A DNA stretch of 64,000 nucleotides from an uncultured Thermodesulfatator sp. (GCA_964581255.1 CAZOMT010000002.1:8775-72774), one strand, 5' to 3'; counted from the stretch's first letter, positions 19,787-54,588 are shown. Numbers and translations: made by a program. The notes: generated by a model not told the origin, from the sequence alone.

Positions 19787-19823
19787 GACTGCCCTTTACC
19801 AAGGATTTTTGCCTTACAGGCTG

Positions 19824-20267
19824 TTAATCGTAGAAAAACATGGGCTTTACCAGGGTGATACCTCCCTGATCCAGCACACCCAGGGCCTTTTCCAACATAT
19901 CCGAGGGGACCTTGAAGATGAGCACGGCCTTACTGGCCCCACCGACAAAGGCATAGGTGTAATCCACATTGATATCATTTTGTGTGAGGATTTTGACCAC
20001 CTCATAAAAACTTCCTGGCTCATCCGCCACTTCCACCGCGAACACTTCCTGCTCCTTGAGGGTAAAACCAGATGAAGACAGGACGCTTTTGGCCTTTTCA
20101 GGATTGTTCACTACAAGGCGCAATATGCCAAATTCGGCAGATTCAGCAAGCGCCAATGCCCTGATGTTTATGGATGCATCTTTCAGGGCCTCGGTGACTT
20201 CCAGGAGCCTGCCTTTCCTGTTTTCAAGAAAGATGGACAGCTGTTTGATTCCGTATTTTTTAATCAT
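19824..20267 (-). CDS. ACT domain-containing protein
   Basis: 147 aa with two ACT-like beta-alpha-beta-beta-alpha-beta repeats ([12 protein letters not shown]..., [12 protein letters not shown]...). 4-nt overlap with the upstream paaK-type ligase, a common pairing. Confidence 0.7.
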
Positions 20268-26200: not shown

Positions 26201-26948
26201 AAATGAGGCACGCAGACGCGGCTTCAAGGCTCCCATCCATATGCTCAAATGCCCTGCCGTGTGCCTCCAAGTGCACATCGAGAAAGCCCTTTGCAGGAAA
26301 CTGCGCCCTGGTGGTGATGTCTTTATAGTATAGGCCTGCCATGTCCAGATGCTCTATCTTGGAATTTAGTGAAAATCCCATGTCTGCAAGATTGCAGGAA
26401 AAGGCGATAAAAATTCGTGAGGCAAAGCTGGTCTTACCTCCCACCTTGCCACTTAAGATATCACCATCTATCTCGATCCTGCCGTAGAGGCTTGAAAGGT
26501 CGGGCCTCTTGTTCTTCAGGGGAAGAAAATCAAGTTTGGTCCCCGATGAAAGCCTGAAGCGCCCGTTTACAACCTTGATCCACCTGAAAGGTGGCTTGGT
26601 CCTTTTCTCTTGCCTGGATACGGACTTGAGGAGAAAATCGGCATCCTCCAGGACAATTCCGTCTATGCCCACATTGCCCTGAAATATGGACAACCAGACT
26701 GGATAGACACTAAGAACCGGCGCATCCAGGCGGAACTCCTTCTTGTACATGGAAAAATCGTCAAAACATAAATGGGGAAGCGGGAACCATCTCCAGCTTG
26801 CAGAGGATAGAGTCACATTCGCATCAATGGCTTTTGCCGTTTCGGTGCGTATCTTGTCTTGAACTTCCGGAAAAGAAAGGATCCAGTTAGGCGCAAATGC
26901 CAGCAATAAGACGATGATTGTTGACAGGCCGAAAAATTTCGAAGACAT
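23268..26948 (-). CDS. YhdP/AsmA-like giant envelope protein (candidate bridge-like lipid transporter)
   Basis: 1226 aa with an N-terminal TM anchor (FGLSTIIVLLLAFAPNWILSF) and a long beta-rich body. The C-terminal string LNLYGTGTVDIRNRKLDLIVFVAPLKTVDKIITSVPIIGAIIGG...VKVEGPWVEP resembles the AsmA_2/YhdP C-terminus. Confidence 0.6.
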   Translation of the reverse strand: MSSKFFGLSTIIVLLLAFAPNWILSFPEVQDKIRTETAKAIDANVTLSSASWRWFPLPHLCFDDFSMYKKEFRLDAPVLSVYPVWLSIFQGNVGIDGIVLEDADFLLKSVSRQEKRTKPPFRWIKVVNGRFRLSSGTKLDFLPLKNKRPDLSSLYGRIEIDGDILSGKVGGKTSFASRIFIAFSCNLADMGFSLNSKIEHLDMAGLYYKDITTRAQFPAKGFLDVHLEAHGRAFEHMDGSLEAASACLISKTKKPEAAFSCGSLKLTFSYSPDEISVLINQLEFAQPNLRLQGNIRLDRKKDGNRLLVDLEGRDIDLGQVRRSVLILLKGHKDAQKVCNIVRGGKASRLSFHFDDDPRYLESLHCMTIEGELEDVPVYVPDQDLFIDSVSGSMKIVGAVLHLENGRMRLRNSHGFNGIFVLGVADHNHEMELDIDLDADLRDVKWALKKFVHKDVLQRELKEVSKTYGRVQGRLMLGDDERHFDTFVDVTSVKAGFFYNRFNWPIKINGGLLSYQDDTLAWKGLSGEAGSNRVACFTGELSWKGRDRLRVEKFSGNLDVPSILDLSPHFKPLEKVREELALKARGRVAVERLSGRIFLDDPRGVTYKGWFKPDGLSVETRLLPGELHVREGSFFLDNNTLKAPRCKVDLSSQEFYASFDLRHHNLKDWQGRLGFTGTVNHAIAKWIEGHGWVPKEYFPKIPVHLKDLNIGLLEQGHEHVSGKLVWKNVESEALIDIDVAKDFLDIRQVRVRSRDETGTFRLLLDEGMGKRFSLGWNGRLSGSALDRCLRKNDILKGRLEGDFSMEYLADPGKGFSQPKGHLSATHLYWLWGTKNPLLMQALDVEAKGNSLFLQTKFRFLQDTIVASGDVSLVGNKVTAYLDVYGKKLSDDSLQVLFEEGTGRPVSIREAPPPNRASFFHEWNLDVGGEISFGFDAVELDLNSRFNVSSEKTGPRIVKVQGVNGYGQFSSSKFTDIKIFGKSFCGLKLNASVEVDKAGKEERSLVITSQEGEEIQFEDFLKCLGFKQHVLSGPFTVEMEMVSPDGILAGSGGLKLHARDGNIKRFGLLSRILGVVNLVDLFSIQPGIGLIEGGFPYDEIVLNSRIDKGVMELEQAVIKGRGLNLYGTGTVDIRNRKLDLIVFVAPLKTVDKIITSVPIIGAIIGGKHKSLITVPVKVEGPWVEPAIRTMPAKAVADVFKKLLFNVLKAPFSIFSKMGVEPPQDSKAN

Positions 26949-32964: not shown

Positions 32965-33682
32965 ACGGCTTGCTGCCCAGCAACTTGAGAAGACATTCAA
33001 TGCCAGAAAGGTAGTGGATGGCCTTTCCATTCACGTGGATTCTGGTGAGATAGTTGGCCTCCTTGGCCCAAATGGAGCTGGCAAGACGACTACCTTCTAT
33101 ATGGTGGTGGGTCTGCTCAAACCTGACAAGGGGACTGTTTTCCTGGATGAAAACGAGCTTACAAAACTTTCCCTCTCGGCCCGTGCAAGGGCAGGCATCT
33201 CCTATCTTCCCCAGGAACGCTCTTTATTCCAGGGCTTGACAGTGGGACAAAACCTTCTTGCAGTGCTTGAGTTTCAAGATATAACTAGGCAGGAACAAAT
33301 CAAACGCAGAGACGAATTGATAGTCCAGTTCAACCTTGACCATGTGGCATCCAACCTGGCAAGTTCCCTTTCTGGAGGTGAAGCAAGGCGCCTTGAGATC
33401 GCCAGAGCCCTTGCCATACAGCCTATGTTCATGCTTCTTGACGAACCCTTTGCTGGAATCGATCCCATCACCGTCACCTCGATTCAGGATATAATCAAAA
33501 GACTCAGGGCCCAAGGTATCGGCATATTGATCTCAGACCATAATGTAAGAGAGACCCTGCGGATATGCGATAGGGCCTACATATTGAACCAAGGCAAGCT
33601 GCTGGAGGCTGGAGACCCTGAAAGGTTGTCGCAAAGCCCCTTGGTAAGGGCCGTATACCTAGGGGATAATTTCAGGCTCTGA
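32954..33682 (+). CDS. lptB: LptB-type ABC ATP-binding protein, second copy
   Basis: [48 protein letters not shown] and C-terminal VYLGDNFRL are all shared with the copy at 14895..15629. The start could be 32939 or 32954; it overlaps the lptC-like stop. Confidence 0.85.
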
Positions 33683-34841
33683 ATGCCTTTATCCTGAGCC
33701 TGTTCAACAAGAATTCTGCTATGGCCCTGGCTCCCCGTTCAGCTGCAGTAGAGCCTGGTTCATTGTAAAAGGTGTAATCGAAGGCCTTCTTTTGCTTTTC
33801 AAGATACAACTCTTTGTGGGTGGAAAACGCCCTCTTCAAGGCGGCATCGAGGCCTGTGTCCACATCATCCACCACTTGTCCCAGGTTCCAGTGATAATAA
33901 AACGGATTGTCCTGCCACTGGACATGGTGGCCATTCAAGAAGATGCAAGGGCGAGGCTCAAACAAAAACTCGTAGACTTGGCTGCTCACATCTCCAAGAT
34001 AGATGTCTGCTGCCCGCATGTACGTCATATCCGCTGAAGCATGGCTTCCTAGATCAATGTAGATATTGTTTACCTTGTGATACCTTTTTGGCAGCCTGGC
34101 CTTGTGACGTTTACGCCTCTTGAATAACACCACATGTGGCGCAAAGATCAGGTTGTATTCGGGATGCGTCCTGAAAAACTCCATTACCTTAATGCCCATG
34201 GGTGCCCACGAAGAAACCCTCTGATCAAAATGTGGATTGTATACTATGACAGGCCTTGAATTGTCGAAAAGACGCTTTCTTTCAGGCCTCAAGCCCTGCA
34301 CTACCTCAAATTTGGGCCACCCCACCACTGCATATCTGCCTTCCTTCAGGTATCCCAACTCCTTCAGCCTGTCTACATACTTCTGGCCAGGCAGCAGTGT
34401 GAAGTCAAAGGCCCCTGATCTATCGTCAAAGCCCCCTTCCCTGTCTCCAGCTCCATGCCTTGCATGGATCATTATGAGATCCTTCAGGCCAAATCTCGTC
34501 TTCAGCTGCATGCAATTTCGCTCTGGTGCCACCAGGGCATCCATTTCCTGAAAAAAGGCAAGATTGTTCTTAAGTACCATCCTCTTGCGCTTGAAGGCCC
34601 ATTTGGAAACCACTGGATCAATGAAACGATAATACCAGGGCACAGCAAGCAACTTGTATTTGCACCTATGACCAGGATAAAGAGTGCTTATTGCCCTTGC
34701 AAAAGCCATTTCTTGGGTAGATGAGCAGGCTATCACCACCTCTATCTCAGGATAAATCCTGGAAAGCTCAAAAGCGTATGGCGCGGCATGGGGAACCTGA
34801 TGCACGAAGTAATGATTGAAGAGAAAACAGACCTTTATCAC
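33672..34841 (-). CDS. hypothetical protein, possibly TagF-like CDP-glycerol/alditol-phosphotransferase fold
   Basis: 389 aa. VIVYNPHF and [25 protein letters not shown] resemble the YAPTxR and ADxLITDYSSxxFDF blocks of the Glyphos_transf family. Recognised only by eye. Its 3' end overlaps the lptB copy convergently by 11 nt. Confidence 0.35.
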
Positions 34842-34848
34842 AATGAAT

Positions 34849-36033
34849 TTATTTTCTTAGCTTTTTTTCTTTTTTGGCTCGCAAAACATCTTCGAAAACT
34901 TTCAGATAACCTTGGACCGCCTTGTCCACTGAGAAATATTCGGCCCGTTTTTTAAGTTCTTCACGATTCCATCTGGTGTCAAGGCCTTTCAATATGGCCT
35001 CCGACATAGCCTTGTCATCTCCAACAGGCACAAGAATCCCAAATCTGCCATCCTCGATTATCTCGCCTGCCCCGCCTGGAGAATCTGTGCTCACAACAGG
35101 GCAACCTGCTGCCAGTGCCTCGATCAGCACACCTGGAAGCCCTTCAAATCTGGATGAAAGACAAAAAAGATGGGCCTTGGACATAAACGCCAGGGGGTTG
35201 GGCACGAAACCATGAAGATCCACCTTGTCTTCGACTCCAAGCTTGGAAATAAGCCTTTTTAGAGCCTGCCGTTCCTTTCCCTCTCCGAGGATTATGAGTC
35301 TCATGTCCCTTTGCCTTACGGCATGGCTGAAGGCCCTTATAAGCATTGCAAAATCCTTCTGTGCCGAAAGTCTTCCAGCCGCAAGGATCACAGGAGGCAC
35401 CTGCCGTTTATCCCCACTCAACCAAGGATGGTCCACATGCTCCCTGGCCTTATCCAGAAGCCCTGGTGTGAATGTGGGATTATAAACCACCCTGATCTTT
35501 TCCACAGGGATGCCCGTTGCCCTGGAGGTGTCTTCGGCAATGTTTTTTGATACTGCCACGAAACCATCAGCATGGGGATAAAGCCGGCATGACTTGATAA
35601 ATCTAACCCTCTTCTTGAGACCCTTTCCTGTTTTTAATGAAGAGGTTAGATGATTACTGAGCCTTATCACCAGAGGAATACTGGTGCCAGAAAGGAGTTT
35701 TGCCGAAATGGCCGCTATGTGTGCATGATTGGCTGCAGATAACAATATGTCCATATCTGCATGCCTTTCAGCCTTTCTGAGGCATGCCACAAGGGGCCAA
35801 CGGCTTAGATCCATCTTGCGCTTCTTGGATAACTTTTTAAAAAGAGGTCTCATAAGCCCCTTGCCCAACTCCTCAACCAATACGCCATCTGCCACATCTT
35901 CCAGATAGCCCCCTTTTTCCACAACTATGAATCTTACCTTGTGGCCTTGCTCCTCAAAGGCCTTTGCCAAGGTGAGAACCCTTCTTGTGGCCCCGCCCCA
36001 TGTAAGGCCGAAGATGAAGATTCCAATTTTCAT
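34849..36033 (-). CDS. glycosyltransferase family 4 (GT-B)
   Basis: N-terminal GGATRRV and C-terminal SRFEGLPGVLIEALAAGCPVVSTDSPGGAGEII (E-x7-E motif); 394 aa. Confidence 0.85.
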   Translation of the reverse strand: MKIGIFIFGLTWGGATRRVLTLAKAFEEQGHKVRFIVVEKGGYLEDVADGVLVEELGKGLMRPLFKKLSKKRKMDLSRWPLVACLRKAERHADMDILLSAANHAHIAAISAKLLSGTSIPLVIRLSNHLTSSLKTGKGLKKRVRFIKSCRLYPHADGFVAVSKNIAEDTSRATGIPVEKIRVVYNPTFTPGLLDKAREHVDHPWLSGDKRQVPPVILAAGRLSAQKDFAMLIRAFSHAVRQRDMRLIILGEGKERQALKRLISKLGVEDKVDLHGFVPNPLAFMSKAHLFCLSSRFEGLPGVLIEALAAGCPVVSTDSPGGAGEIIEDGRFGILVPVGDDKAMSEAILKGLDTRWNREELKKRAEYFSVDKAVQGYLKVFEDVLRAKKEKKLRK

Positions 36034-37786: not shown

Positions 37787-38968
37787 TTAAGCCGGATTGT
37801 GAACAGACTCAAAGGCCTTTGCTATCTTTTCAATCTGTTGGATCGAGTGAGCGGCACTTAGGCTGCATCTTAAAAGAGCGGTTCCGTCAGGTGTGGCTGG
37901 CGGCAACACCATATTCACATATACTCCCCTTTCCAGGAGACCGTTCCAGATCCTGAATGCCTCATCTACCTGCTCACACCTTACAGGAATAATAGGGCTT
38001 GCCTCTGGCCCAACCTTGAACCCAAGCTCCTTCAACCTCCCGTATAGGGCAAAGGCGTTTTCCCAGAGCCTTTGCCGCAACTGAGGTTCTGAACGAATTA
38101 TGGCAAGGGCAGCCTTTGCTGCGGCTATGTTTGCAGGAGATGAAGAAGCAGTGAAGACATAGGGCCTGCTGGCGAAACGAATAATTTCCAGTTCTTCATG
38201 ATTGCTTGTGCAAAAGCCACCAACTGAACCAAGGCTTTTACTAAAGGTCCCCACCACAAAGTCCACAGCATCCTCGACCCCGGCTTCCTCTGCCAGCCCT
38301 CTGCCCCTTTCTCCAAGGACTCCCAGGGAATGGGCCTCGTCCACCAAGAGGTAGGCACCATATTCTGCCTTCAGGGCCGCAATCTCTTTAAGGGGTGCCC
38401 TATCACCCAGCATACTATAGAGACCTTCCACCACAATGAGGACATCCCCATCCTGCTGTTTCATTCTCTTCAACCGTTTTTCCAGATCATTCACGTCGTT
38501 GTGGCGAAACCGGAATACTTGAACACCGCCAAGACGGCAGCCGTCATAGATGCTGGCATGGCAATCTGCATCAAGCAGTACCACGTCCCTGGGACCCACT
38601 ATGGTGGAAAGCATGGCCAGGTTGGCGCTGTAACCCGTGGTGAATACGATGGTCCTTGACCTGCCGAAAAATTCCGAAAGGTCTTGTTCCAGTGCTACAT
38701 GGGACGAATATGTCCCATTGGCCATCCTGGAACCTGTAGTGCCTGTTCCTTCATGTTCAATTGCCTTGCAAGCAGCCTCAATACATTCATGCCTGAGGGG
38801 CAGGCCCAGGTAATTGTTGGTCCCAGCCAGGATGACCCTGTTGCCATTTATAACCGCTTCTGTACTGGACAAAAGCTCCTCAATAACAATGTCAAAAAAT
38901 GCGCTGCACTGTTCCTCAATCGTCCTTATGGAAGAAGAGATCTTTTCAAACTTGTCAAAAAGCCCCAT
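37787..38968 (-). CDS. spt: alpha-oxoamine synthase, serine palmitoyltransferase-like
   Basis: NNYLGL, GTGTTGSRMANGT, DADCHASIYDGC, RFRHND and the PLP-lysine block GTFSKSLGSVGGF. This matches my recollection of Sphingomonas SPT better than BioF or Kbl. Confidence 0.7.
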   Translation of the reverse strand: MGLFDKFEKISSSIRTIEEQCSAFFDIVIEELLSSTEAVINGNRVILAGTNNYLGLPLRHECIEAACKAIEHEGTGTTGSRMANGTYSSHVALEQDLSEFFGRSRTIVFTTGYSANLAMLSTIVGPRDVVLLDADCHASIYDGCRLGGVQVFRFRHNDVNDLEKRLKRMKQQDGDVLIVVEGLYSMLGDRAPLKEIAALKAEYGAYLLVDEAHSLGVLGERGRGLAEEAGVEDAVDFVVGTFSKSLGSVGGFCTSNHEELEIIRFASRPYVFTASSSPANIAAAKAALAIIRSEPQLRQRLWENAFALYGRLKELGFKVGPEASPIIPVRCEQVDEAFRIWNGLLERGVYVNMVLPPATPDGTALLRCSLSAAHSIQQIEKIAKAFESVHNPA

Positions 38969-38973
38969 CTATC

Positions 38974-39219
38974 TCAAGCCTCGGTAAGCTTCTGTACCTG
39001 GATAGCGAGATCTTCAACAGTGCGTACCTCTGAAAGGACATTTATGGGGATTGAAAGATCAAAGGCATCTTCCAGATTTGCCAAGATTTCCATGGACTTT
39101 AGGGAATCTATGGCCAGGTCACTTTCTATGTCCATTCCAGGTTTTATCTCCACACTGCCAGAAACATATGGCTGAAGTATCTCCACTATCTTTTCCAGTA
39201 TGACCTTATCTGCCTTCAT
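38974..39219 (-). CDS. acp: acyl carrier protein
   Basis: 81 aa, with the phosphopantetheine site DLAIDSLKSMEI (DSL). Confidence 0.85.
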   Translation of the reverse strand: MKADKVILEKIVEILQPYVSGSVEIKPGMDIESDLAIDSLKSMEILANLEDAFDLSIPINVLSEVRTVEDLAIQVQKLTEA

Positions 39220-39316
39220 GAGACATATCCTTATGTTAGCATCCGTCTTGGAAAAGAATGGTTACCCATTGGCCCCATTTTCAAGAAGAGTTGAGAATGC
39301 TAAAAAAATTATTGTT

Positions 39317-40270
39317 TCAAATCAATCTGCTTTTAAGGGCATCTGCCAGGACAATCCTTGGCGCCCAGTTCATATCCTGACAGATTCGGCTATTATCGCA
39401 GACCCAGGCGGGATATGCAAGCTCCCTGGCCTTTCCAGGCGTAAGCATTGGGGGTTTCCTGCGGAATCGGGACACAGCAGCATTTATGTAGCCGGCAGCA
39501 AACAGGAGCCCAAAAGGGATGCGAAGCCTCAATATCCTTTTTTTCAAGACCCGCTCGGCCACTTCTGCTACTTCCTGCCAGGAATATCCCAGCGGAACAC
39601 CATCGTGCAACTCGTAGGTTTTGCAAAAGACCTCATTGCTGGAAAACCAGCAAAAAACAGCCTCTGCGAGATCGTGAACATGAAGTAGAGAGAACCTATT
39701 TTGGCCGTTTCCTAGGCAAGGAACCACTCCCTTGCAAATCCATTCAAGGATGGGACGCATCTGTTTATCGCCAGGGCCATAAACTGCCGGAGGCCTGAAA
39801 ATCGTCCAGGAAAGCCCTTCATGAAACCTTTTCAGGGCCTCTTCACCCCTTTTCTTGCTTAGGGCATAATGGGATAATTCCGGATTTTTCGCCGCAAGGG
39901 ACGAGACAAGAAGAAGGCGTGGCGGCCTTTTATGCCGAGAACAGACCTTTGCAAGGTGGGCCACCGCCTCCTTGTTTATCCTTTCAAAATCCTTCAGGTT
40001 CAGACCCCTCACCAGTCCAGCACAGTGGATAGTGGCGTCTGCCTCCTTTGTGAGCCTTTCAAGGCTAGAGACATCGTCAAGCTCTCCCTTGACCCATTCT
40101 AGCCCAGACTGATGCCAGCATTTGTCTGTTGAGCAGTCTCTGACAAGGGCCTTTACCCTGAAGCCAGCAAGGAGAAATCTTCTGGCCACAGCTCCACCTA
40201 TAAATCCGGTGGCACCAGTAATTGCAATAACTCCTTTAAATTTGGACGGACAGGAAACAAAGCAAGCCAT
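39317..40270 (-). CDS. NAD-dependent epimerase/dehydratase-family (extended SDR) reductase; candidate 3-keto-sphingoid/ceramide reductase
   Basis: ITGATGFIGGAV Rossmann motif and YALSK (YxxxK); 317 aa. Its position downstream of ACP/Spt mirrors the Caulobacter cerR position (recollection). Confidence 0.6.
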   Translation of the reverse strand: MACFVSCPSKFKGVIAITGATGFIGGAVARRFLLAGFRVKALVRDCSTDKCWHQSGLEWVKGELDDVSSLERLTKEADATIHCAGLVRGLNLKDFERINKEAVAHLAKVCSRHKRPPRLLLVSSLAAKNPELSHYALSKKRGEEALKRFHEGLSWTIFRPPAVYGPGDKQMRPILEWICKGVVPCLGNGQNRFSLLHVHDLAEAVFCWFSSNEVFCKTYELHDGVPLGYSWQEVAEVAERVLKKRILRLRIPFGLLFAAGYINAAVSRFRRKPPMLTPGKARELAYPAWVCDNSRICQDMNWAPRIVLADALKSRLI

Positions 40271-40518
40271 AATTCAGTATAACAGGAATATAAAAGATGT
40301 GGAGCTCGCCATTCAAAGGAAAAAAGATGGGATCTTCCGGCAGGTGAGCACCAAAGGCCAGTAAAGTGTTGAAGGCGCACGCAAGTAGCACATAGTTATT
40401 TGGGCCAATCGAATAATTTGACTGGATTTTCTGAACGGGATCTTTCAGCTACTTGAGGAGAAAGAGATGGCAGGAAATAATTTCAGGCCCCCTGGGGATT
40501 GGCTTAAAAAGGCGATGA

Positions 40519-41175
40519 TTATCCTTGATCCAATGTCTTTATGAAGCTATCTGCCTCCTTGATGGAGCGTTCCATATCTTGGATGAGCCTTGTTACATCG
40601 GTTTCGATCCTTGAAAGCTCTACCTTGAGCGATGCTATGGCCCTGGCATTCAAATTGTGCTTGAGGAACAGGACTTCGTCCCTCAATGGCCTTAAGACCG
40701 GTTCTATCTTTGCTTCGGCCCTCTTCATGGCACGGATCAACTGGTTGTAGCGCCTCCTGGTCTGTCTGAGCTTATCTTCACTTGCACGTCTTAAACTGGG
40801 GCTGCTGTATTGATCCAGTTCCTCTTCCCATTCGGCAAAAAGGGCTTCGGCTACGTCCTCAACAGCGGCTATTCTTTCATGGACCTCCTTGGCTTTGTCC
40901 TCCATCCTGTCGAGTTCATCTTTAAGTTCCTGGTATTTTTCCTCCAGCTCCCCGCCGTGAAAATGGACTACACTGCTGAATCTGTCTAAGGCTGAAGCAA
41001 ACTCCTCCTTTGCCTCTTCCTGGGTGTCTCTGGCTGCCTTCACCCGGTCAACCAGGATATCCCTCTTATGGATACCCATCTTTTCCATTGTGTCGTAATA
41101 AACTGTGCTGCAACCAAACAAAAAAACGAAAAGACAGGATGCAAGCAGAAAGTGTTGAAACAGTCCCCTATTCAT
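40519..41175 (-). CDS. DUF2959-like coiled-coil lipoprotein
   Basis: Lipobox LFVFLFGC, followed by MGIHKRDILVDRVKAARDTQEEAKEEF, which resembles the DUF2959 N-terminus; 218 aa. Confidence 0.55.
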   Translation of the reverse strand: MNRGLFQHFLLASCLFVFLFGCSTVYYDTMEKMGIHKRDILVDRVKAARDTQEEAKEEFASALDRFSSVVHFHGGELEEKYQELKDELDRMEDKAKEVHERIAAVEDVAEALFAEWEEELDQYSSPSLRRASEDKLRQTRRRYNQLIRAMKRAEAKIEPVLRPLRDEVLFLKHNLNARAIASLKVELSRIETDVTRLIQDMERSIKEADSFIKTLDQG

Positions 41176-41214
41176 TGATCCCAGCTCCAGACATGGACAA
41201 ATCCAAATGAAGGC

Positions 41215-43014
41215 TCATGGACATCCAACAAACCCTCTTTCAATACAGACCTTTCTTGTGGCACTTCTTGAAGGTTTTCCTGATGTCGTTCTAACCAGGG
41301 TATTTCTTGGCACAACTATTACTTGGCAATCTATCCCCAGCTCTTTGAGCACCAGGCTCCTAAGGGTGCCTCGCAAGGCCTTTTTGGCCTCTTCATCACC
41401 ATTTTTACACTGAATGACCAATACGGCCCGCTCTTTGCCTTTTTCATCCGGGAGGGAAAATGCGCAGGTATCCCCGATCCTCACTTCTTCTAAGGATTCA
41501 GCCAAGTATTCGATATCTTGAGGCCAGATATTTCTGCCATTTATGATAATTAAATCCTTGGAACGCCCTGTTATGACAATGTCTTTGCCTGAAAGATAGG
41601 CAGTATCTCCGGTGTTGAGCCATCCCTCGGCATCCAAGACCTCGCTTGTGGCCTCCTTGTCCCCAAGATACCCTGACATAACACTTGGCCCCCTGAGAAA
41701 AAGGATTCCGCACTTACCATCAGGCACCACCCTTCCAGATGAATCTCGAATCTCTACCTCAAATCCCGGCAAGGGGCATCCACATTTTACAAAGGTCTTG
41801 ACCCTACCATTGGCAGAGGCCTTTTGGGTTTTCAAATGCACTATTTCCTTAAAGGTTGCAAGGCGTTCTGCATCAATGCTGTCTACCTCTATCCCCACGC
41901 CCCTCTTGGCAAAGGCGACGGCCAGGGAACATTCGGCCATGCCATAACAGGACAAAAACGCCCCTGGATCAAAACCACACGGCTTGAGGCGTTTCGCAAA
42001 GCGTTCAAGCAATTCCGGCCGAATCATTTCGGCCCCTACCCCTGCAATTCTCCATGAGCTCAAGTCGTAATTCTGTACGTCACTGTCCCTTAGGCGAAGG
42101 GCTGCCAACTCATATCCGAATGGCGGACTAAACGAAATGGTGGCGCCATTATCCGACATGAGTTTCAGCCATAACCCTGGACGCATGGCAAAATCACTGG
42201 TACTGAAAAAATCCACAGATAGCTGGGAAGCCATAGTAGACAGCACCAGCCCCACTAGCCCCATGTCGTGGTAGAAGGGCAACCAGGAAACAGCCCTGTC
42301 CCCGTTTCTGCAGCTGATGCCATATTCGGTGATGGCATTGAGGTTGCTGAGAACCGCCTTCTGGGTGATCATGACCCCTTTGGGGAACCTGGTGCTTCCA
42401 GAAGTGAACTGGAGATAGGCAAGTTCCCCCTGGCCAAGGGGATCAAGCTGCACGCTGGATTCAGGCAAGGCATAAAAGTCATCAGGCCTTCCAAGGAAAT
42501 CGAGCCGATGCCCTTGTGCCGCCTTTTCAAGATATGGATAAAACTCGTCTGTTGCCACGGCCAGCCTGGCATCACAAATGGCTAAAAGCCTTGACAACTG
42601 ACGAACATAGGCCTCGGCACCGTTCAAGTGCATTACAATGGGAAGTGGCACAGGGATGAGGCCAGCATACTGGCACGCAAAAAAGAACCTTACGAATTCC
42701 GGATGGGTATTTGCTACTATTGCGACCTTCGAACCCCTAGGAATCCTAAAGTATAGCAGCTTTCGTGCAAGTATGCGGGCGTCATGCCTGAGCCTTGAAT
42801 AGGGAATAGAGGCATACAAGTGGCCCCGTCTGGAATAAAAATTATAACCTGTCCGGCCCCTTGCCGCATAATCAAGGGCTTGGGCGAGCGTTGAGAACTC
42901 GCCACGCCTCATGGGTATATTGTTTATACTCGGGGTCGCAACAAGCCTAGAAGTGTCTTCCAGTTTTATTTCACTGCCACAGGAATAGGAGACAACTGCC
43001 TGAGATGATTTCAT
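41215..43014 (-). CDS. fatty acyl-AMP ligase / acyl-ACP synthetase (adenylate-forming)
   Basis: YLQFTSGSTRFPKGVMITQ, GDTAY and GRSKDLIIINGRNIWPQDIE (FAAL-typical); 599 aa. Confidence 0.82.
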   Translation of the reverse strand: MKSSQAVVSYSCGSEIKLEDTSRLVATPSINNIPMRRGEFSTLAQALDYAARGRTGYNFYSRRGHLYASIPYSRLRHDARILARKLLYFRIPRGSKVAIVANTHPEFVRFFFACQYAGLIPVPLPIVMHLNGAEAYVRQLSRLLAICDARLAVATDEFYPYLEKAAQGHRLDFLGRPDDFYALPESSVQLDPLGQGELAYLQFTSGSTRFPKGVMITQKAVLSNLNAITEYGISCRNGDRAVSWLPFYHDMGLVGLVLSTMASQLSVDFFSTSDFAMRPGLWLKLMSDNGATISFSPPFGYELAALRLRDSDVQNYDLSSWRIAGVGAEMIRPELLERFAKRLKPCGFDPGAFLSCYGMAECSLAVAFAKRGVGIEVDSIDAERLATFKEIVHLKTQKASANGRVKTFVKCGCPLPGFEVEIRDSSGRVVPDGKCGILFLRGPSVMSGYLGDKEATSEVLDAEGWLNTGDTAYLSGKDIVITGRSKDLIIINGRNIWPQDIEYLAESLEEVRIGDTCAFSLPDEKGKERAVLVIQCKNGDEEAKKALRGTLRSLVLKELGIDCQVIVVPRNTLVRTTSGKPSRSATRKVCIERGFVGCP

Positions 43015-43584: not shown

Positions 43585-44529
43585 ATGAAAACAACACCAC
43601 TTCTTTTGCTTTTGCTCACGACTGTTATCACTGGTCACTCTTTTGGGCCCTGTTATGCTGACACGGAAGGGGCACTTTTGCCAGAAACGCGGTTTATGGC
43701 GAGACCGCCGTGGAAGGAGCTCTATTTTCAGGGAGGCAAAGGTTTTACAAGGATTGCCGCCTCTGTCAGACTCAGGTCTTCGAGGGGTTTTTGCCCTTGT
43801 GATCTTACATGTACCCTCAAAGGCCTGATGCCGTGCCCTCTTGAAGAGGCGAATACAAAAGTCCTTTCAGTAGATACTGCCGTTTCCACCCTTATACCAC
43901 CCCAGGAAGAATATATTCAGCATGTATGGTTCAATAAAAAGAATGGCAAGGCATATCAGCGCATCAGATGGAAAAAGGGGGCCCACGCCTGGATCAAGGC
44001 ATATAAATGGGAAGAAAGAGGCGTAAGGCGCTTGAAACTTCAACCACGTGGCCCCCATGAGATAAACCTCGCTCCTGGCAAATGGACCAGGAAAAAAAGC
44101 TCCTTTTTCCCCTATGCGCAGGATGCCGAAAGTTGCCATGTCATATCGGAGCCAGCGGTTTTATTATATCTCTTGTCTATCATCGATACCAGACAAGTCC
44201 GTTTCCCCTTGGAGTTGTGTGTATTTGGGAAAAAACAACTGCACAGGGTGACCATCCGACTCATGAGACTTAAGCCACTAAAAATCTCCTTTGAATCCTA
44301 TGGGCTACAAGGTGAACATCGCGTGGAAAAGACCATAAGACCAATGGTCTTTTTCATAACCACCCTGCCAGAGGAGAAAAAGAAACGCGAGCCATTTTCA
44401 TTGCTTGGTCTTCGGGAGGATATTTACATCTTTATCGACCCTGAAACGCGCCTACCTGTACGGATCATGGGCAAAACCAAAAGGGCTGGCGACATGGTAC
44501 TGGCGCTCACAGGTGCCTGGATCAGATAA
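43585..44529 (+). CDS. exported hypothetical protein (possibly DUF3108-like)
   Basis: Signal peptide MKTTPLLLLLLTTVITGHSFGPCYA, 314 aa, beta-rich. The C-terminal IDPETRLPVRI..G is reminiscent of DUF3108. The function call is weak. Confidence 0.45.
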   Translation: MKTTPLLLLLLTTVITGHSFGPCYADTEGALLPETRFMARPPWKELYFQGGKGFTRIAASVRLRSSRGFCPCDLTCTLKGLMPCPLEEANTKVLSVDTAVSTLIPPQEEYIQHVWFNKKNGKAYQRIRWKKGAHAWIKAYKWEERGVRRLKLQPRGPHEINLAPGKWTRKKSSFFPYAQDAESCHVISEPAVLLYLLSIIDTRQVRFPLELCVFGKKQLHRVTIRLMRLKPLKISFESYGLQGEHRVEKTIRPMVFFITTLPEEKKKREPFSLLGLREDIYIFIDPETRLPVRIMGKTKRAGDMVLALTGAWIR

Positions 44530-44795: not shown

Positions 44796-45617
44796 TCAAG
44801 CATCCCGTCCATCAGCCGTTCTGGTCGCTATAGTTTCCACAAGCCTCCAGTCCTCCTCGGTATCCACGTCGATGGCTGCTTCGGGAAAAGGCATCAAGAC
44901 AGCCCCAACACTACAACCAAAAACCTTTGATGCACGATCCAACGCCTTGCGAAGGCTCAATGTGCCTGTGAGATACCTTAGGAGCCAATACCAACCAAAA
45001 CCTCCTACCACCTGAAGGGGCTTCTTACGCCTTTCTTCCACCATTTGCCAAAACTCAGCTGCCCTGAAAGCCCTTTTGTTCATGAATCCAAACAGATTGC
45101 AAGAACAAAATACACCGTCTCTGAACCTGTATGAGGTCCTTTTGGCATTGGGATAAGACCTCTTCAACAAATCCATGCTTGCAAGCCCTACCGACAGGTC
45201 GTAACCTGCTTCATCAGCCTTTTCACAGAAAAACCTTACAATTTCCGGCCTGAGAAGCGCATGATCCGCTGTAGTTAGCAGAATCGGGGCCTGGCCGCCT
45301 GCAAGCCTCAAGGCCTTAAGTGCGCTTTGGCTGGGGGAAGGCTCGTTGCGAACCCACTGAATGGAATCTGACCTTATTGCTGTGGCTCCTTCTTCCATCG
45401 TTTGAAAAATGTACTTTTCCGGACCACATAACAAGATACGTTCTATGCACCCGGACCCCCAAAGCCCCTCCACCACCCTTTGAACCATAGGCTTGCCACC
45501 AACAGGGATCAGGGCCTTTATTGGGACATCAAACCTTGCCAGAAGAGGATTCTCCCCCCTTCTTTCGCCAGCAAGGACAATGGCATCGAACATGGTGAAA
45601 CCGCTCTCAATCTTCAT
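44796..45617 (-). CDS. MobA-like NTP-transferase family protein
   Basis: FDAIVLAGERRGENPL...KALIPVGGKPMVQRV (degenerate GxGxR nucleotidyltransferase motif); 273 aa. ATGA overlap with the upstream GNAT-like gene. Confidence 0.6.
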   Translation of the reverse strand: MKIESGFTMFDAIVLAGERRGENPLLARFDVPIKALIPVGGKPMVQRVVEGLWGSGCIERILLCGPEKYIFQTMEEGATAIRSDSIQWVRNEPSPSQSALKALRLAGGQAPILLTTADHALLRPEIVRFFCEKADEAGYDLSVGLASMDLLKRSYPNAKRTSYRFRDGVFCSCNLFGFMNKRAFRAAEFWQMVEERRKKPLQVVGGFGWYWLLRYLTGTLSLRKALDRASKVFGCSVGAVLMPFPEAAIDVDTEEDWRLVETIATRTADGRDA

Positions 45618-46780
45618 TTGGTAGCATCCAGATCACCTGAGATGTCCTTCTCATAGATCCTGTAGACCTTGTATGGCTCAGCTCCCAGGGCCTCTATTAT
45701 CCGCCTCATGGCCACGTTGTCTTCAAGTATCCATGAAAGCTCCAATTCTGAGATGGACGAATCGAGCACTTCCTTCATGATATCTCTTATCAGGCTCAGA
45801 CTTACTGCAGCACCCGCCAGGCTGTCTTGATATTTGGAAAGTACACCCATAAGCAATATACGCCCTGTTTTGAACTTGTGGAATCTGATCCGCCATAAAA
45901 GCCTCATCCATCCAAATGGAAGGAGCCGCCCGTCAAGATCAGATATGATCTCATTGAGATTTGGCAAGACAGCGATGAATCCTGCAGGCTCTCCATTGAT
46001 CTCGGCAATTCGGATAAATTCCTGACGGGCCAGAAAACTCATGCTTTTGCCTATATCATTGTATTCTTCCTTGGTGAATGGAACAAAACCCCAGTTTCCA
46101 GACCAGGCATCATTGAATATCCCAAACATGATATCGAGTTCTCTTTTTAGATCTCTTTTCATCAAGGGCCTGGTCTGAACCTCACCCTTTACACTGCCAA
46201 GTATGTCATGAATTTTTTTTAGGATTTCCGGGACCTTTTTGATGGAATATGCCAAGAGATCCTTTGCCTTGCCATAACCCAACAGTTCTATATTGGGGCC
46301 ATAATATCTCGGCGCGTGCCCCATCATCATGGAAGGTGGGAATTCGAAACCCTTTATCAAAAGGCCGCACTCTTGATTTATTGACAGGTTGAAAGGGCCA
46401 AGGCTTCTTTGCATTCCCTTTTCTTTCAGCCAACCTTCAGCGGTTTCAAAAAGTATCCTGAATATCGAGACGTCCTCCAATGCCTCGAACATACCCCAAA
46501 AGCCTGTCGCATCCTTGTATCGGTCCAGGTATAGGCGGTCTATCTGGGCGCTAATGCGGCCAACTGGCTCCTGCCCCCTATATGCCACCCAAAACCTGCA
46601 ATCTGCATGGGCAAAGTATGGGTTTTTCCTGGAAAGATGCATGCGTCTTTCCAGCACAAGGGGTGAAACCCAGTTGGGATCGTTCTGGTATACAGACCAC
46701 GGCAACTTTATGAATTCATCAAGGGTTGCCTTATCAGTAACCTCTTTGATCTGTAACCCGTTGGGTTGACTCATTGACAC
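45614..46780 (-). CDS. large GNAT-like acyltransferase family protein; candidate bacterial ceramide synthase-type N-acyltransferase
   Basis: 388 aa. N-terminal LPWSVYQNDPNWVSPL, VGRISAQID, and a central FIRIAEINGEPAGFIAVLPN beta-strand pattern of the GNAT fold. The functional assignment is inferred from context. Confidence 0.45.
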   Translation of the reverse strand: MSMSQPNGLQIKEVTDKATLDEFIKLPWSVYQNDPNWVSPLVLERRMHLSRKNPYFAHADCRFWVAYRGQEPVGRISAQIDRLYLDRYKDATGFWGMFEALEDVSIFRILFETAEGWLKEKGMQRSLGPFNLSINQECGLLIKGFEFPPSMMMGHAPRYYGPNIELLGYGKAKDLLAYSIKKVPEILKKIHDILGSVKGEVQTRPLMKRDLKRELDIMFGIFNDAWSGNWGFVPFTKEEYNDIGKSMSFLARQEFIRIAEINGEPAGFIAVLPNLNEIISDLDGRLLPFGWMRLLWRIRFHKFKTGRILLMGVLSKYQDSLAGAAVSLSLIRDIMKEVLDSSISELELSWILEDNVAMRRIIEALGAEPYKVYRIYEKDISGDLDATK

Positions 46781-47116
46781 ACCTTTTGGAACTGCTCATG
46801 ATGATGAAACTTCTATGAAGCACTTCAGGCCACTTTTTAAATTGCCGTTAGTTCGTTAACGTCGTTGCCCGAGAAAATAATCCTTAAAATATCAAATAGA
46901 TATCTGCCATTTATTTTGTCATACACCTAGTTCTTGGATCGAAATTTTCAGAACTTTGGAAGCGGCCTTCAAGCCCAGGCATGATTCCATACCCCCATTC
47001 CACAGGCTCAAAAATGTGCTGCCTTACGAAGAGTTGGACTTTTAATACCAGTGAATCTATATTAATTGCAGATAGATTTAGATGTTAACACCGTTTTGAT
47101 TTTGGGAGCAAGTTTC

Positions 47117-47917
47117 ATGAACGCGATAATTCTCAGTGCAGGCCAGGGCAAAAGGCTTCTGCCTCTGACATCAAAATCCCCCAAATGCCTGCTCGATATC
47201 TGTGGGAAAACCATATTGGAATGGCAAGTTGAGACACTTGCCGGTGAAAAAGTCGATGAAATCATCGTGGTAACTGGCTATGGATCGGAAAAGGTTGAAC
47301 AACTGGTCCAGAGACGGCTCAAACAATACGGAGTAAGGACCTTCTACAATCCGGATTTTGCCACTTCTGACAACCTTATAAGCTGCTGGAAGGTACGCCA
47401 TGAGATGAAGGGCGAATTCATACTCTTGAATGGGGATACCCTTTTTGAACCGGCAGTCTTGGAAACACTCCTAAGTTCACCTGAAGCATCCATAACTGTT
47501 ACGGTCAGCTCGAAGGACAAATATGACTCAGACGATATGAAGGTCGTAACAGAGGCGGGAAGGCTCCTGAAAATAGGCAAAGAACTGCCCCTGGATCGCG
47601 TCTCTGCAGAATCCATCGGACTCATATATTTCAGGGGGCAGGGACCTGAAATCTTCTCAACAGCCCTTGATGAGGCTGTCCATGATCCAGGCTCCAGAAA
47701 GAAATGGTATCTTTCAGTGATTGATGCCATAGCCGCAAACAATCCTGTAATGACATGTTCGGTCACCGGCCTGAAGTGGTGCGAAATTGATTATCCCAAG
47801 GACCTGAAGTTGGCAGAGCCTGTAGTGTCTGCGATCAAACTCGATGGCAGAAGTCAGGACAGCCACCAGATGTACATGGGGCAAGGCCTCGTACACGCAA
47901 AGGGCAGGGCCTGCTGA
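47117..47917 (+). CDS. sugar/alcohol-phosphate nucleotidyl(cytidylyl)transferase, LicC/IPCT-like
   Basis: MNAIILSAGQGKRLLPLTSKSPKCLL (GxGxRL motif), LLNGDTLF and WCEIDYPKDL. GGGAG lies 8 nt upstream of ATG 47117; the track start 47066 is less likely. Confidence 0.75.
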   Translation: MNAIILSAGQGKRLLPLTSKSPKCLLDICGKTILEWQVETLAGEKVDEIIVVTGYGSEKVEQLVQRRLKQYGVRTFYNPDFATSDNLISCWKVRHEMKGEFILLNGDTLFEPAVLETLLSSPEASITVTVSSKDKYDSDDMKVVTEAGRLLKIGKELPLDRVSAESIGLIYFRGQGPEIFSTALDEAVHDPGSRKKWYLSVIDAIAANNPVMTCSVTGLKWCEIDYPKDLKLAEPVVSAIKLDGRSQDSHQMYMGQGLVHAKGRAC

Positions 47918-51417: not shown

Positions 51418-52629
51418 ATGCAATTTTCCATGAACCTCTATCTCTACTTCATAAACGATTGTCCTGTAAAAATATGGGGTCTTACTCCAAGGTGCCGTGC
51501 CCAAAAGGTACTTATGGGCCAGGCAGTAGCCGTTGAGGATCTTTCCAAACTCAAACCTACGGATCACGTCCTCATACTCAGGGGAGACTATATATTTGAA
51601 GACAGACTGCTCAAACACCTTGCTGCTACCCCAAACATCCTTCTTCTCGTAGAAGAAGGCCGCAAGCAGATTCCTGTTGCCGTCCACGTCCCTGGATCAC
51701 TTGCAAAGCAGGGGATCAGGATCTTGCAGCAGGGCAGGATACCAAAAGGGCTTGAGGGAATATCCGTTCATACCATAGAGAGTGTTTCTGTGGCCTTTCA
51801 TGAAAAGCTCAGGAAATTTGAGCCACCCTTTGCAATCCACGTAACCGAAAAAGATGTCAACGATATTGAAAAACGCCTCTTCAACTGGTCGTACAAAGGT
51901 GTGACCGACCTCGTTACCAAATGGCTCTGGCCACTACCGGCAAGATGGGTGGTAAGGCAGTGTGTACGTCTTAATCTTAAACCTAATCATATCACCTTCA
52001 TTGGTTTTTTACTTGTTCTACTGGCTGGATACCTCTTTGCAAAGGGCAGGTTGGGCTGGGGATTGTTGGCAGGATGGCTCATGACCTTTCTCGATACGGT
52101 TGATGGAAAACTTGCCAGGGTCACAGTGACTTCTAGTAAATTTGGCCACTATTTCGACCACATAATCGATATCATCCATCCCCCCATCTGGTATCTGTTA
52201 TGGGGGATTGGCACTGTTCAAACAGGACAATACCATTTGCACATTTCACCATCCACCCTCTATATGACGATTTTCGCAGGATACATTGCAGGACGGTTGG
52301 CAGAAGGTTCGTTTCAGTGGTTCATAGCAAGGTTTGGCATATTTTGCTGGAGACCAATGGATTCGTTCTTCAGGCTGATAACGGCAAGACGAAACCCTTG
52401 CATGATCCTTCTGACTGTATCCTACCTCATTGGACGACCAGACTGGGGGCTAGTCTCGGTAGCCTTTTGGACAGTGGCCACTACTCTTTTCCTTTTGGCC
52501 CGGCTGACATATGCATTTTATCAAAAGCATTCAAAGGGTGAAGTAAAATCGTGGCTCCAGGAAATAGATTTTACCTCGGGAAAGAAGAATCTGGCCATAC
52601 GCTGGTTTACCAGGCACGATTCCACCTAA
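51418..52629 (+). CDS. CDP-alcohol phosphatidyltransferase with about 150-aa soluble N-terminal extension
   Basis: DTVDGKLARVTVTSSKFGHYFDHIID matches D-x2-DG-x2-AR-x8-G-x3-D-x3-D. Multiple TM segments follow; 403 aa. Confidence 0.85.
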   Translation: MQFSMNLYLYFINDCPVKIWGLTPRCRAQKVLMGQAVAVEDLSKLKPTDHVLILRGDYIFEDRLLKHLAATPNILLLVEEGRKQIPVAVHVPGSLAKQGIRILQQGRIPKGLEGISVHTIESVSVAFHEKLRKFEPPFAIHVTEKDVNDIEKRLFNWSYKGVTDLVTKWLWPLPARWVVRQCVRLNLKPNHITFIGFLLVLLAGYLFAKGRLGWGLLAGWLMTFLDTVDGKLARVTVTSSKFGHYFDHIIDIIHPPIWYLLWGIGTVQTGQYHLHISPSTLYMTIFAGYIAGRLAEGSFQWFIARFGIFCWRPMDSFFRLITARRNPCMILLTVSYLIGRPDWGLVSVAFWTVATTLFLLARLTYAFYQKHSKGEVKSWLQEIDFTSGKKNLAIRWFTRHDST

Positions 52630-52636
52630 ACCCGCG

Positions 52637-53626
52637 ATGACAAGGCAGCACACTTGTTTAACAGCCCAAGCGAAGGCTGGAATGCTAATAAACCCCCTGG
52701 GCGGATCCAACAAAAAGATAAGTGGAATACTATTCAAAACGGCTAAAGAATCAGTAGGCACCGTAAAAAAAGTGGTTACCCCTATGGATGTTGAGGCAGC
52801 CCTCAAAGACTTTAGGGAAAAAGGTGTCAACCTACTGATAGTGAGCGGTGGAGATGGTACTGTGCAGGCGGTTCTCACAACCCTTTTCGGGAAAGGCCCT
52901 TTTGACACTCTACCTGCGCTTGCGATCTTGCCTGGAGGAACCACGAATCTCATAGCAAAAGACGTAGGAATTTGCATTTCTCAAAAACGGGCTATCAAGG
53001 AATTGATGAATCTTTTACGGGAAAACAGGTTGCTGTCCTGCGCCACTTTAGCCAAGAGGCATGTATTGCATCTCAACTGCCAAGACAGAGTCGACGAATA
53101 TGGCATGTTTCTCGGGGCTGCTGGCATATCCCAGGCAGTAGCAGCCTTTCAGAAACAGAAGATGCATCACCTCACGTGCAGAAAGGCCAACATATTGCTC
53201 GCCGCCATCAAACTCATGGTGGCATCCATTGTTGGACGTGGCACAAAGGATCACTCAGAAAGGCTCAAAATTCGGCTTAATGGCAAAACCATCTTGGACA
53301 AGAGGTTTCTGCTGGTCCTGGTCACGACCCTCGAAAGGCTATTTTTCGGTATAAGGCCCTTTTGGGCCCAAATGGACGGCCCTATTCATCTGACTGCTGT
53401 TGCAAGAAGGCCGAAATATTTTCCAAAAGTCCTATTGGGGCTAATCTTCAAAAGATTCAGCAAGCACCTGACGAAAGAAAATGGATATCTTTCATTCAAT
53501 GCCCACATAATTGAACTCTATGCCCCAAAAGGGGTCGCCCTGGACGGACAGATAATTAAAAACCCTGACCCTGATATACCCATAGTTGTAAAAGATGGTG
53601 GGGAAGTATCATTTATCAAGCTATGA
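52637..53626 (+). CDS. DAGK-catalytic-domain lipid kinase (YegS/BmrU/sphingosine-ceramide kinase superfamily)
   Basis: MLINPLGGSNKK and LLIVSGGDGTVQAVL plus ILPGGTTN motifs; 329 aa. It starts 7 nt after the preceding gene. Confidence 0.8.
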   Translation: MTRQHTCLTAQAKAGMLINPLGGSNKKISGILFKTAKESVGTVKKVVTPMDVEAALKDFREKGVNLLIVSGGDGTVQAVLTTLFGKGPFDTLPALAILPGGTTNLIAKDVGICISQKRAIKELMNLLRENRLLSCATLAKRHVLHLNCQDRVDEYGMFLGAAGISQAVAAFQKQKMHHLTCRKANILLAAIKLMVASIVGRGTKDHSERLKIRLNGKTILDKRFLLVLVTTLERLFFGIRPFWAQMDGPIHLTAVARRPKYFPKVLLGLIFKRFSKHLTKENGYLSFNAHIIELYAPKGVALDGQIIKNPDPDIPIVVKDGGEVSFIKL

Positions 53627-54588
53627 CTTGCGCCATTCCCTATCCCCTCTTGAGAGAAATACAAAAATATTCGCAAACCCACATAGTATCACCTGGCCTC
53701 CACGCCTTAATGGATGAGATTACAAGACGCCATGGCCCAGGGGTAAAGGCCATTTTATATTATGGTTCCTGCCTCCAATCTGGCAAGGAATTCGACGGTA
53801 TCGTGGATCTTTTTGTCCTAGTGAACGATTATGGCTCGGTTTACAAACGGCCTTGGCTCAGTTTCCTGAACTGGCTCCTGCCTCCAAATGTATTCTATCT
53901 GGAGCTTCCAATAGAAAAAGGCAAACGCATCAGGGCAAAATACGCCATAATATCTCTCGCGGACTTTTTGGAGAAGACTTCTGGAAAGACATTCCACTCG
54001 TACTTCTGGGCACGTTTCAGCCAGCCTGTCGCATTGATTTTTTTCTCACATCCAAGGATAAAAAGGGCGGTTGAAAATGGGCTTGCCTGTGCCTTAATGA
54101 CCTTTCTAAAAAACGTGGTGCCATGCGCGGCTCCTCGCTTTGATGCCAAGAAGCTGTGGCTTACGGGCCTAAATTTAAGCTACAGCGCAGAACTCAGGCC
54201 AGAACGGGCCTTTCGCCTCGAAAGGCTATGGGCAGAACAAGGGGAGATATTGGAAGCCGTAACCGAGGTTGCCATAAAGGCTCTTCCTTACGAAATAACC
54301 GTTGAAACTGAAGGAGAAGACATCTTATATCTGGCAAACATACCAAGGCGCGCCTGTGCTCTTTGTTGCACTGCATGGAGGTTTAGGCGCATATACGGAA
54401 AACTTCTTTCAGTGCTTCGTCTTTTCAAGGCCAGTTTCACATTCAGGGCCGGGGTGGATTACGCAATCTGGAAGATAAAAAGACATTCTGGAGTGCAGAT
54501 AGAGGTCAGCCCCTTTCTTAGAAGGCATCCGGCCCTTGCAATGGTGGTACTATCCTGGAGGCTTTTTAAGAGCCGGGCTGTGCGGTGA
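53623..54588 (+). CDS. hypothetical protein; candidate Tam41/Mmp37-like nucleotidyl(cytidylyl)transferase
   Basis: ATGA overlap with the lipid kinase gene. YYGSCLQSG, IVDLFVLV, NVFYLELP...RAKYAIISLADFLE and FHSYFWARFSQPVALIF line up by eye with yeast Tam41 blocks YGSGV..Q, IDLI.GV, GVYFNPF...VKYGVVS...LL.D and FYLAGRLQKPVKIL (recollection). Confidence 0.4.
   Translation: MTCAIPYPLLREIQKYSQTHIVSPGLHALMDEITRRHGPGVKAILYYGSCLQSGKEFDGIVDLFVLVNDYGSVYKRPWLSFLNWLLPPNVFYLELPIEKGKRIRAKYAIISLADFLEKTSGKTFHSYFWARFSQPVALIFFSHPRIKRAVENGLACALMTFLKNVVPCAAPRFDAKKLWLTGLNLSYSAELRPERAFRLERLWAEQGEILEAVTEVAIKALPYEITVETEGEDILYLANIPRRACALCCTAWRFRRIYGKLLSVLRLFKASFTFRAGVDYAIWKIKRHSGVQIEVSPFLRRHPALAMVVLSWRLFKSRAVR

Follow-up and report, generated by a model that had tools for sequence, protein, structure and literature searches.

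A sphingolipid-type gene string resembling those of Caulobacter and E. coli B in an uncultured Thermodesulfatator sp.

Does an uncultured Thermodesulfatator sp. carry the genes for sphingolipid synthesis? The question is raised by a 64,000-nucleotide stretch of its DNA (GCA_964581255.1, CAZOMT010000002.1:8775–72774; hereafter the window), of which positions 37787–43014 hold genes for a fatty acyl-AMP ligase (FAAL), a DUF2959 lipoprotein, a short-chain dehydrogenase/reductase (SDR), an acyl carrier protein (ACP), and an oxoamine synthase, here called Spt. A preliminary description of this DNA had likened the string to the sphingolipid locus of Caulobacter. From sequence comparisons, we conclude that it very probably represents an intact module for de novo dihydroceramide synthesis, arranged as in Caulobacter and Escherichia coli B (aasR-cerR-acpR-spt and, in an adjacent operon, cerS). 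The genes concerned are the following, in window coordinates.

41215–43014, minus strand: FAAL, an AasR-like fatty acyl-AMP ligase (acyl-ACP synthetase), 599 residues, first gene of the string
40519–41175, minus strand: DUF2959 lipoprotein gene between those of the FAAL and the SDR, 218 residues, Pfam PF11172
39317–40270, minus strand: CerR-like NDUFA9-type extended SDR, candidate 3-keto reductase of a long-chain base or ceramide, 317 residues
38974–39219, minus strand: AcpR-like dedicated ACP, 81 residues, PF00550
37787–38968, minus strand: Spt, a serine palmitoyltransferase according to NF047599, 393 residues
36030–37745, minus strand: MsbA/HepA-like half-type ABC exporter with ABC_membrane and ABC_tran domains, directly downstream of spt, candidate lipid flippase
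34849–36033, minus strand: GT4 glycosyltransferase, with GT4 domains
33672–34841, minus strand: 389-residue protein without a family match in Pfam or NCBIfam, partner of the GT4 gene and last gene of the spt transcription unit
45614–46780, minus strand: bCerS/YghO-like N-acyltransferase, ceramide synthase candidate, 388 residues, in a separate upstream operon

All five open reading frames of the string lie on the minus strand exactly where the preliminary description had placed them, in the transcription order FAAL, DUF2959, SDR, ACP, Spt, and their translations carry the expected Pfam domains: AMP-binding (FAAL), DUF2959 (288 bits), Epimerase/NAD_binding (SDR), PP-binding (ACP), and Aminotran_1_2 (Spt). 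The motifs that it had quoted are likewise all found in the translations: NNYLGL, GTGTTGSRMANGT, DADCHASIYDGC, RFRHND, and GTFSKSLGSVGGF in Spt, DSL in the ACP, GATGFIGG and YALSK (YxxxK) in the SDR, and GRSKDLIIINGRNIWPQDIE in the FAAL. Only 5 nucleotides separate the ACP stop codon from the spt start codon; a gap of 41 nucleotides follows between spt and the exporter gene, which overlaps the GT4 gene by 4 nucleotides, and 7 nucleotides lie between the latter and the gene of the 389-residue protein. The GC content is level throughout the region and therefore gives no sign of recent import.

The assignment of the 393-residue protein as a serine palmitoyltransferase (SPT) is supported at the level of predicted family. 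It scores 613.6 bits on the NCBIfam equivalog model of this enzyme (NF047599, cut-off 500), on which the biochemically characterized Spt of E. coli B reaches 599 bits. It falls short of the cut-offs for the two remaining Spt models (AlphaP and CFB) and for BioF (340.8 bits, cut-off 426), Kbl (330.2 bits, cut-off 460), HemA (242 bits, cut-off 338.6), and CqsA (223.9 bits, cut-off 428). The PDB matches are headed by the SPTs of Sphingomonas wittichii (2x8u, 410.7 bits), S. paucimobilis (2jg2, 400 bits), and Sphingobacterium multivorum (289 bits), with Kbl (237 bits), the cysteate acyltransferase 28eh (207 bits), BioF (182 bits), and CqsA (140 bits) ranking lower. Sequence identity amounts to 52% with both E. 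coli B Spt and S. wittichii SPT, 49% with S. paucimobilis SPT (SpSPT), and 35% with Kbl and BioF of E. coli. In a maximum-likelihood tree, E. coli B Spt and the two SPTs of Sphingomonas join the window Spt and its relatives in one clade (98/98 support), which a long branch separates from BioF and Kbl of E. coli. The distinction from BioF and Kbl drawn in the preliminary description is thus borne out by the curated cut-offs and by the tree; BioF stands apart in both analyses, and CqsA by its scores.

Alignment with the Sphingomonas enzymes covers nearly the full length and shows an identical PLP-lysine block (PLP, pyridoxal 5′-phosphate) and identical catalytic residues: His159, Asp231, His234, Lys265, and Arg390 of SpSPT correspond to H137, D210, H213, K244, and R367 of the window Spt. 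The S. paucimobilis string quoted in the preliminary description, GTFSKSVGTVGGF, is confirmed in the PDB alignment, and its Kbl string GTLGKA is correct for E. coli; its BioF string GTLSKA was a minor slip, E. coli BioF having VTFGKG. At the position of SpSPT Arg378, the window Spt has Leu355. An altered specificity was considered as the meaning of this exchange and rejected: Leu also occupies this position in the functional Spt of E. coli B, and we therefore regard the exchange as a trait of the clade and not as a defect.

The 120 closest database relatives of Spt share at least 67% identity with it and stem from many different metagenomes. Most of them are labeled ‘8-amino-7-oxononanoate synthase’ or generic aminotransferase in the JGI annotation. 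These labels, and the fact that FAAL-ACP pairs also open lipopeptide and polyketide pathways, could speak for a cassette that makes a non-membrane product, be it a CqsA/LqsA-type signal, biotin (BioF), a step of threonine catabolism (Kbl), or an amino-polyketide. The missed cut-offs of the BioF, Kbl, CqsA, and HemA models contradict this, no polyketide synthase or nonribosomal peptide synthetase genes lie nearby, and the CerS homolog, the NDUFA9-like reductase, and the Lpt paralogs suit a membrane sphingolipid, so that such a cassette seems hardly credible to us. Reading these proteins as serine palmitoyltransferases corrects the JGI label 8-amino-7-oxononanoate synthase as a misannotation.

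Cysteate specificity, which the preliminary description would have counted against a sphingolipid, would make the enzyme an acyltransferase of capnine-type sulfonolipid synthesis. A sulfur-cycling host could supply cysteate, and a Black Sea study (Ding et al. 2024, PMC11334938) reports a correlation of sulfono-1-deoxyceramides with Desulfobacterota and/or Bacteroidota. However, the characterized cysteate acyltransferases (CFATs) group apart from the SPTs, with which they share ∼30% identity (PMC13692747), the window enzyme passes the NF047599 cut-off, and in the score ranking, which is the yardstick here, it reaches 207 bits with 28eh versus 400–410 bits with the serine SPTs. We consider this assignment extremely improbable.

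The remaining proteins of the string match the partners of Spt in the characterized systems. The FAAL scores 730.7 bits on the fatty acyl-AMP ligase model NF006624 (cut-off 600), is 44% identical over 558 residues to AasR of E. coli BL21 by BLASTP, and has 3pbk as its best PDB match (505 bits), an entry that is E. coli AasR itself (1273 bits). The ACP retains the serine of its DSL motif and is 46% identical to E. coli BL21 AcpR (BLASTP); it misses all models of housekeeping ACPs, the best score being 43 bits for a cut-off of 70. The SDR shows 41% identity over 304 residues to Epi of E. coli BL21 (ECD_02852), the named homolog of Caulobacter CerR (CC_1164), and its best PDB matches are subunits of the NDUFA9 family, consistent with the published homology of CerR and NDUFA9. 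CerR is reported to be periplasmic in Caulobacter; a reading of the translation reveals no obvious N-terminal signal sequence on the window SDR.

The ceramide synthase candidate is encoded 2.6 kb upstream of the string, in its own operon. Its Pfam match is a weak one to GNAT, and BLASTP aligns it over 376 residues, with 45% identity, to YghO of E. coli BL21; YghO-like genes, with 38–39% identity, adjoin spt in three loci from alphaproteobacterial metagenome-assembled genomes (MAGs; L006–L008). A MobA-like nucleotidyltransferase gene (44796–45617, minus strand) shares an ATGA overlap with the YghO/bCerS-like gene, indicating translational coupling. This pair is kept in three of the related loci (L001, L010, and L012), and E. 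coli yghO is without such a partner.

How does this set compare with the characterized loci? In E. coli BL21(DE3), ECD_02851 to ECD_02854 are aasR, epi, acpR, and spt, and yghO (ECD_02850) and ECD_02852 are homologs of the Caulobacter N-acyltransferase gene CC_1154 and of cerR (CC_1164), respectively (PMC9386255); RefSeq names the four genes fatty acyl-AMP ligase, NAD-dependent epimerase/dehydratase, acyl carrier protein, and spt, with yghO divergent upstream. The transcription order is the same as in the window, the cerS homolog is separately transcribed next door in both, all five proteins share 41–52% identity, both Spt proteins fit NF047599, and second copies of lptF/lptG occur nearby in both, the E. 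coli pair lying downstream of spt. Three of the four core proteins of E. coli B, AasR, AcpR, and Spt, have been tested biochemically: AcpR bears phosphopantetheine, AasR acylates AcpR but neither CoA nor housekeeping ACPs, and acyl-AcpR is preferred by the Spt enzymes of Caulobacter, E. coli B, and S. wittichii (PMC9386255). The window differs by the DUF2959 gene that separates aasR from the reductase gene, by the exporter, GT4, and 389-residue protein genes that extend the operon beyond spt, by an additional block of head-group genes, and by a host from another phylum.

The Caulobacter crescentus locus, to which the window was compared by gene order and through the published homology of the E. 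coli B and Caulobacter genes (PMC9386255), the sequences themselves being compared via E. coli BL21, reads CC_1165 aasR, CC_1164 cerR, CC_1163 acpR, and CC_1162 spt, with CC_1154 as cerS, in the region CC_1168–CC_1152; five genes are required, and cerS is always in a different operon from spt (PMC11324152). The order that the preliminary description had given (spt, acp, cerR, acyl-ACP synthetase) is therefore correct. All five dihydroceramide genes are clustered in both organisms, and paralogs of LptC/F/G as well as head-group genes of the lipid kinase type belong to both neighborhoods; the DUF2959 gene is not reported from the CC_1168–CC_1152 locus. The sphingomonads, unlike the window, have aasR far from acpR-spt. 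PMC9386255 presents the AasR/AcpR set as characteristic of alpha-, beta-, and gamma-proteobacteria, with full clustering confined to Caulobacter and E. coli B.

Homology and synteny thus show a full set of intact-looking genes, predicted to encode an AasR-type FAAL, an AcpR-type carrier, Spt, a CerR-type reductase, and a bCerS-type acyltransferase. For the substrates, the order of steps, the product, and its transport, we infer the following scheme. The FAAL would adenylate a free long-chain fatty acid and pass it to the dedicated ACP, which would bear it on its phosphopantetheine arm. As a PLP enzyme with the Schiff base at Lys244, Spt would condense the acyl-ACP with L-serine to 3-ketosphinganine and CO2. 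The YghO/bCerS-like acyltransferase would attach the amide-linked acyl chain, and the NDUFA9-like SDR would reduce the 3-keto group, the two reactions leading in either order to dihydroceramide. The cotranscribed ABC exporter and the flanking Lpt paralogs (LptC/LptB, LptF/LptG) would most likely carry the lipid to the outer membrane. The first two of these steps, which the preliminary description had proposed, have been shown for the homologs in Caulobacter and E. coli B (PMC9386255), and the window proteins are 44–52% identical to them. Its third proposal, reduction of the 3-keto group by the SDR, stands as far as the CerR type of the enzyme is concerned, less so in the substrate: the Caulobacter reductase has been reported to follow the ceramide synthase and to act on N-acylated (oxidized) ceramide, not on free 3-ketosphinganine. 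Deletion of cerR in Caulobacter leads to the accumulation of oxidized ceramide, and the order of reduction and N-acylation is disputed.

Is the string a chance assembly? Its order recurs in seven loci of the delta type, three loci from alphaproteobacterial MAGs, and E. coli BL21(DE3), and is therefore far beyond chance. A contig scan yielded eight loci, none from a cultivated organism. The arrangement FAAL-SDR-ACP-Spt-ABC exporter is found in the delta-type loci L001 (84% Spt identity), L002 (83%), L009 (80%), L010 (73%), and L012 (70%); L003 and L004 are partial and consistent with the same order, and L011 is rearranged. In the alphaproteobacterial L006–L008, FAAL-SDR-ACP-Spt is followed by the YghO-like gene. 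The source names of the Spt relatives are Thermodesulfobacteria, Desulfobacterales, and Deltaproteobacteria MAGs, an indirect indication that the host may belong to the Desulfobacterota; that the NCBI taxonomy places ‘Deltaproteobacteria bacterium’ in the Myxococcota is a naming artifact. The window sequence itself is found in hydrothermal vent metagenomes, and metagenomes are the one source from which the organism is known.

Several observations weigh against this interpretation. The DUF2959 and SDR genes are separated by 248 nucleotides with promoter-like matches (consensus matches only), so that the string may correspond to two transcripts; the same gap, examined for regulatory elements, contains none conserved between loci and no Rfam match. 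A search for evidence of expression turned up no RNA run that holds the sequence. The tree covered BioF and Kbl as sister families, and the exclusion of CqsA, HemA, and CFATs comes from profile and PDB scores. Finally, the amino acid substrate is not readable from the sequence, and in the Black Sea study (PMC11334938), the abundance of Desulfobacterota correlates mainly with 1-deoxy- and sulfono-1-deoxyceramides. The last two points lead to a variant in which the same enzymes operate with an Spt that mainly uses alanine (or glycine) and yields 1-deoxy (‘headless’) ceramides. In that study, metalipidomics ties the abundant Desulfobacterota to 1-deoxyceramides and Spt enzymes are described as accepting alanine; the correlation presented there, however, cannot tell Desulfobacterota from Bacteroidota. 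The closest characterized enzymes use serine (PMC9386255), and the window contains head-group genes whose products need a C1 hydroxyl (GT4, CDP-alcohol transferase, and lipid kinase). We consider predominant use of alanine or glycine quite unlikely and retain the serine-based dihydroceramide module.

What, then, is the role of the DUF2959 gene within this module? Its product matches PF11172 over the full length and has an LFGC lipobox at the N terminus. Its position behind the FAAL gene and ahead of the SDR gene is confined to the window and L001 (the L018 contig of the DUF2959 survey); in L002, L009, L010, and L012, the loci with a readable FAAL-SDR stretch, the DUF2959 gene is missing and the FAAL gene leads directly to that of the SDR. 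None of 78 other metagenomic DUF2959 loci has FAAL, SDR, ACP, or Spt genes in its flanks, which leaves L018 as the one linked case among 79, and the copies in L019 (86% identical) and L061 (72% identical) stand alone beside divergently transcribed genes. A function as pathway component was therefore rejected. In view of its absence from related loci and of sphingolipid genes from the surroundings of the 78 others, the gene is probably an incidental, lineage-specific insertion and not part of the pathway, and we conclude that it joined the operon in an ancestor shared by the window and L001. The preliminary description was thus right that the gene is inserted in the string and unreported from the Caulobacter locus, and a contribution to the pathway is not borne out.

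The ABC exporter gene directly follows spt in every delta-type locus examined (L001, L002, L003, L004, L009, L010, L011, and L012). In the alphaproteobacterial L006–L008, no ABC exporter is found within 10 kb of spt. A paper of 2024 notes that a bacterial sphingolipid flippase has yet to be identified; given this statement and the constant position behind spt, the exporter is a candidate for such a flippase. The GT4 gene and that of the 389-residue protein form a pair that is syntenic in L001, L004, and L010, and LptC/LptB and LptF/LptG genes flank the locus.

How new is a sphingolipid locus in such a host? The preliminary description had considered sphingolipid synthesis in a sulfate-reducer-like genome noteworthy, and sphingolipids go unmentioned in a PNAS paper of 2024 on the lipidome of sulfate reducers. 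Ding et al. 2024 (PMC11334938) published Spt-like genes accompanied by CerR and bCerS genes in Desulfobacterota MAGs from the Black Sea, a prediction of the same type, with CerR and bCerS near Spt in anaerobic uncultured bacteria. With this potential already published from metagenomes, the finding is less noteworthy than had been claimed. In the sections consulted, only Spt, bCerS, and CerR were searched and the term ‘acyl carrier’ is not used, and their material is from the Black Sea, whereas ours is from vent metagenomes. The system is of a known kind, and the window adds a lineage to it, not a mechanism. What is new is that all five genes of the AasR/AcpR-dependent set occur in a Desulfobacterota-like lineage, with a clade-specific exporter behind spt; a dihydroceramide set complete with its own carrier protein and the enzyme that loads it would thus not be confined to alpha-, beta-, and gamma-proteobacteria but extend to an uncultured vent lineage. 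The locus supports the metagenome-based proposal that anaerobic bacteria of the sulfur cycle are sources of environmental sphingolipids, and such compact, clustered loci suit heterologous reconstitution. A broader proposal, which we regard as rather unlikely, would have the AasR/AcpR route native and widespread in anaerobic Desulfobacterota-like bacteria, where it may feed the 1-deoxy or otherwise modified ceramides of euxinic waters, with the exporter behind spt as the missing flippase. If true, the ‘rhodobacterial’ route would no longer be a hallmark of alpha-, beta-, and gamma-proteobacteria alone, and the exporter would be the first bacterial sphingolipid flippase.

The surroundings of the module contain further genes of possible relevance to envelope lipids. 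Beside lptF/lptG, the segments 47066–47917 and 51418–54588 encode an IPCT/LicC-like nucleotidyltransferase, a CDP-alcohol phosphotransferase similar to (archaetidyl)inositol-phosphate synthases, a DAGK-type lipid kinase, and a 321-residue protein of no known family, which probably make a sphingolipid head group. In E. coli BL21, the second lptF/lptG copies (NC_012971, 2995996–2999842) are named ordinary lipopolysaccharide export permeases by RefSeq, and a ‘lipopolysaccharide biosynthesis protein’ gene and a YtfJ-family gene adjoin them in the E. coli B island; such names probably mask functions specific to sphingolipids.

Divergent from the FAAL gene, a 314-residue protein without a Pfam or NCBIfam match is encoded at 43585–44529 (plus strand). 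Its gene is syntenic in L001 and L002, and probably in L009, L010, and L012, where genes for proteins of 309–321 residues without a Pfam match occupy the same position, which makes it a conserved component of the locus. In L010, a squalene-hopene cyclase gene (19080–21080) lies 8 kb from the sphingolipid operon, so that hopanoids and sphingolipids may co-occur in this group. At the edge of the envelope-lipid neighborhood of the window (23268–26948, minus strand), a 1226-residue YhdP/AsmA-like protein, a candidate intermembrane lipid transporter, is encoded together with an AmgK-like kinase, and both genes are syntenic in L001.

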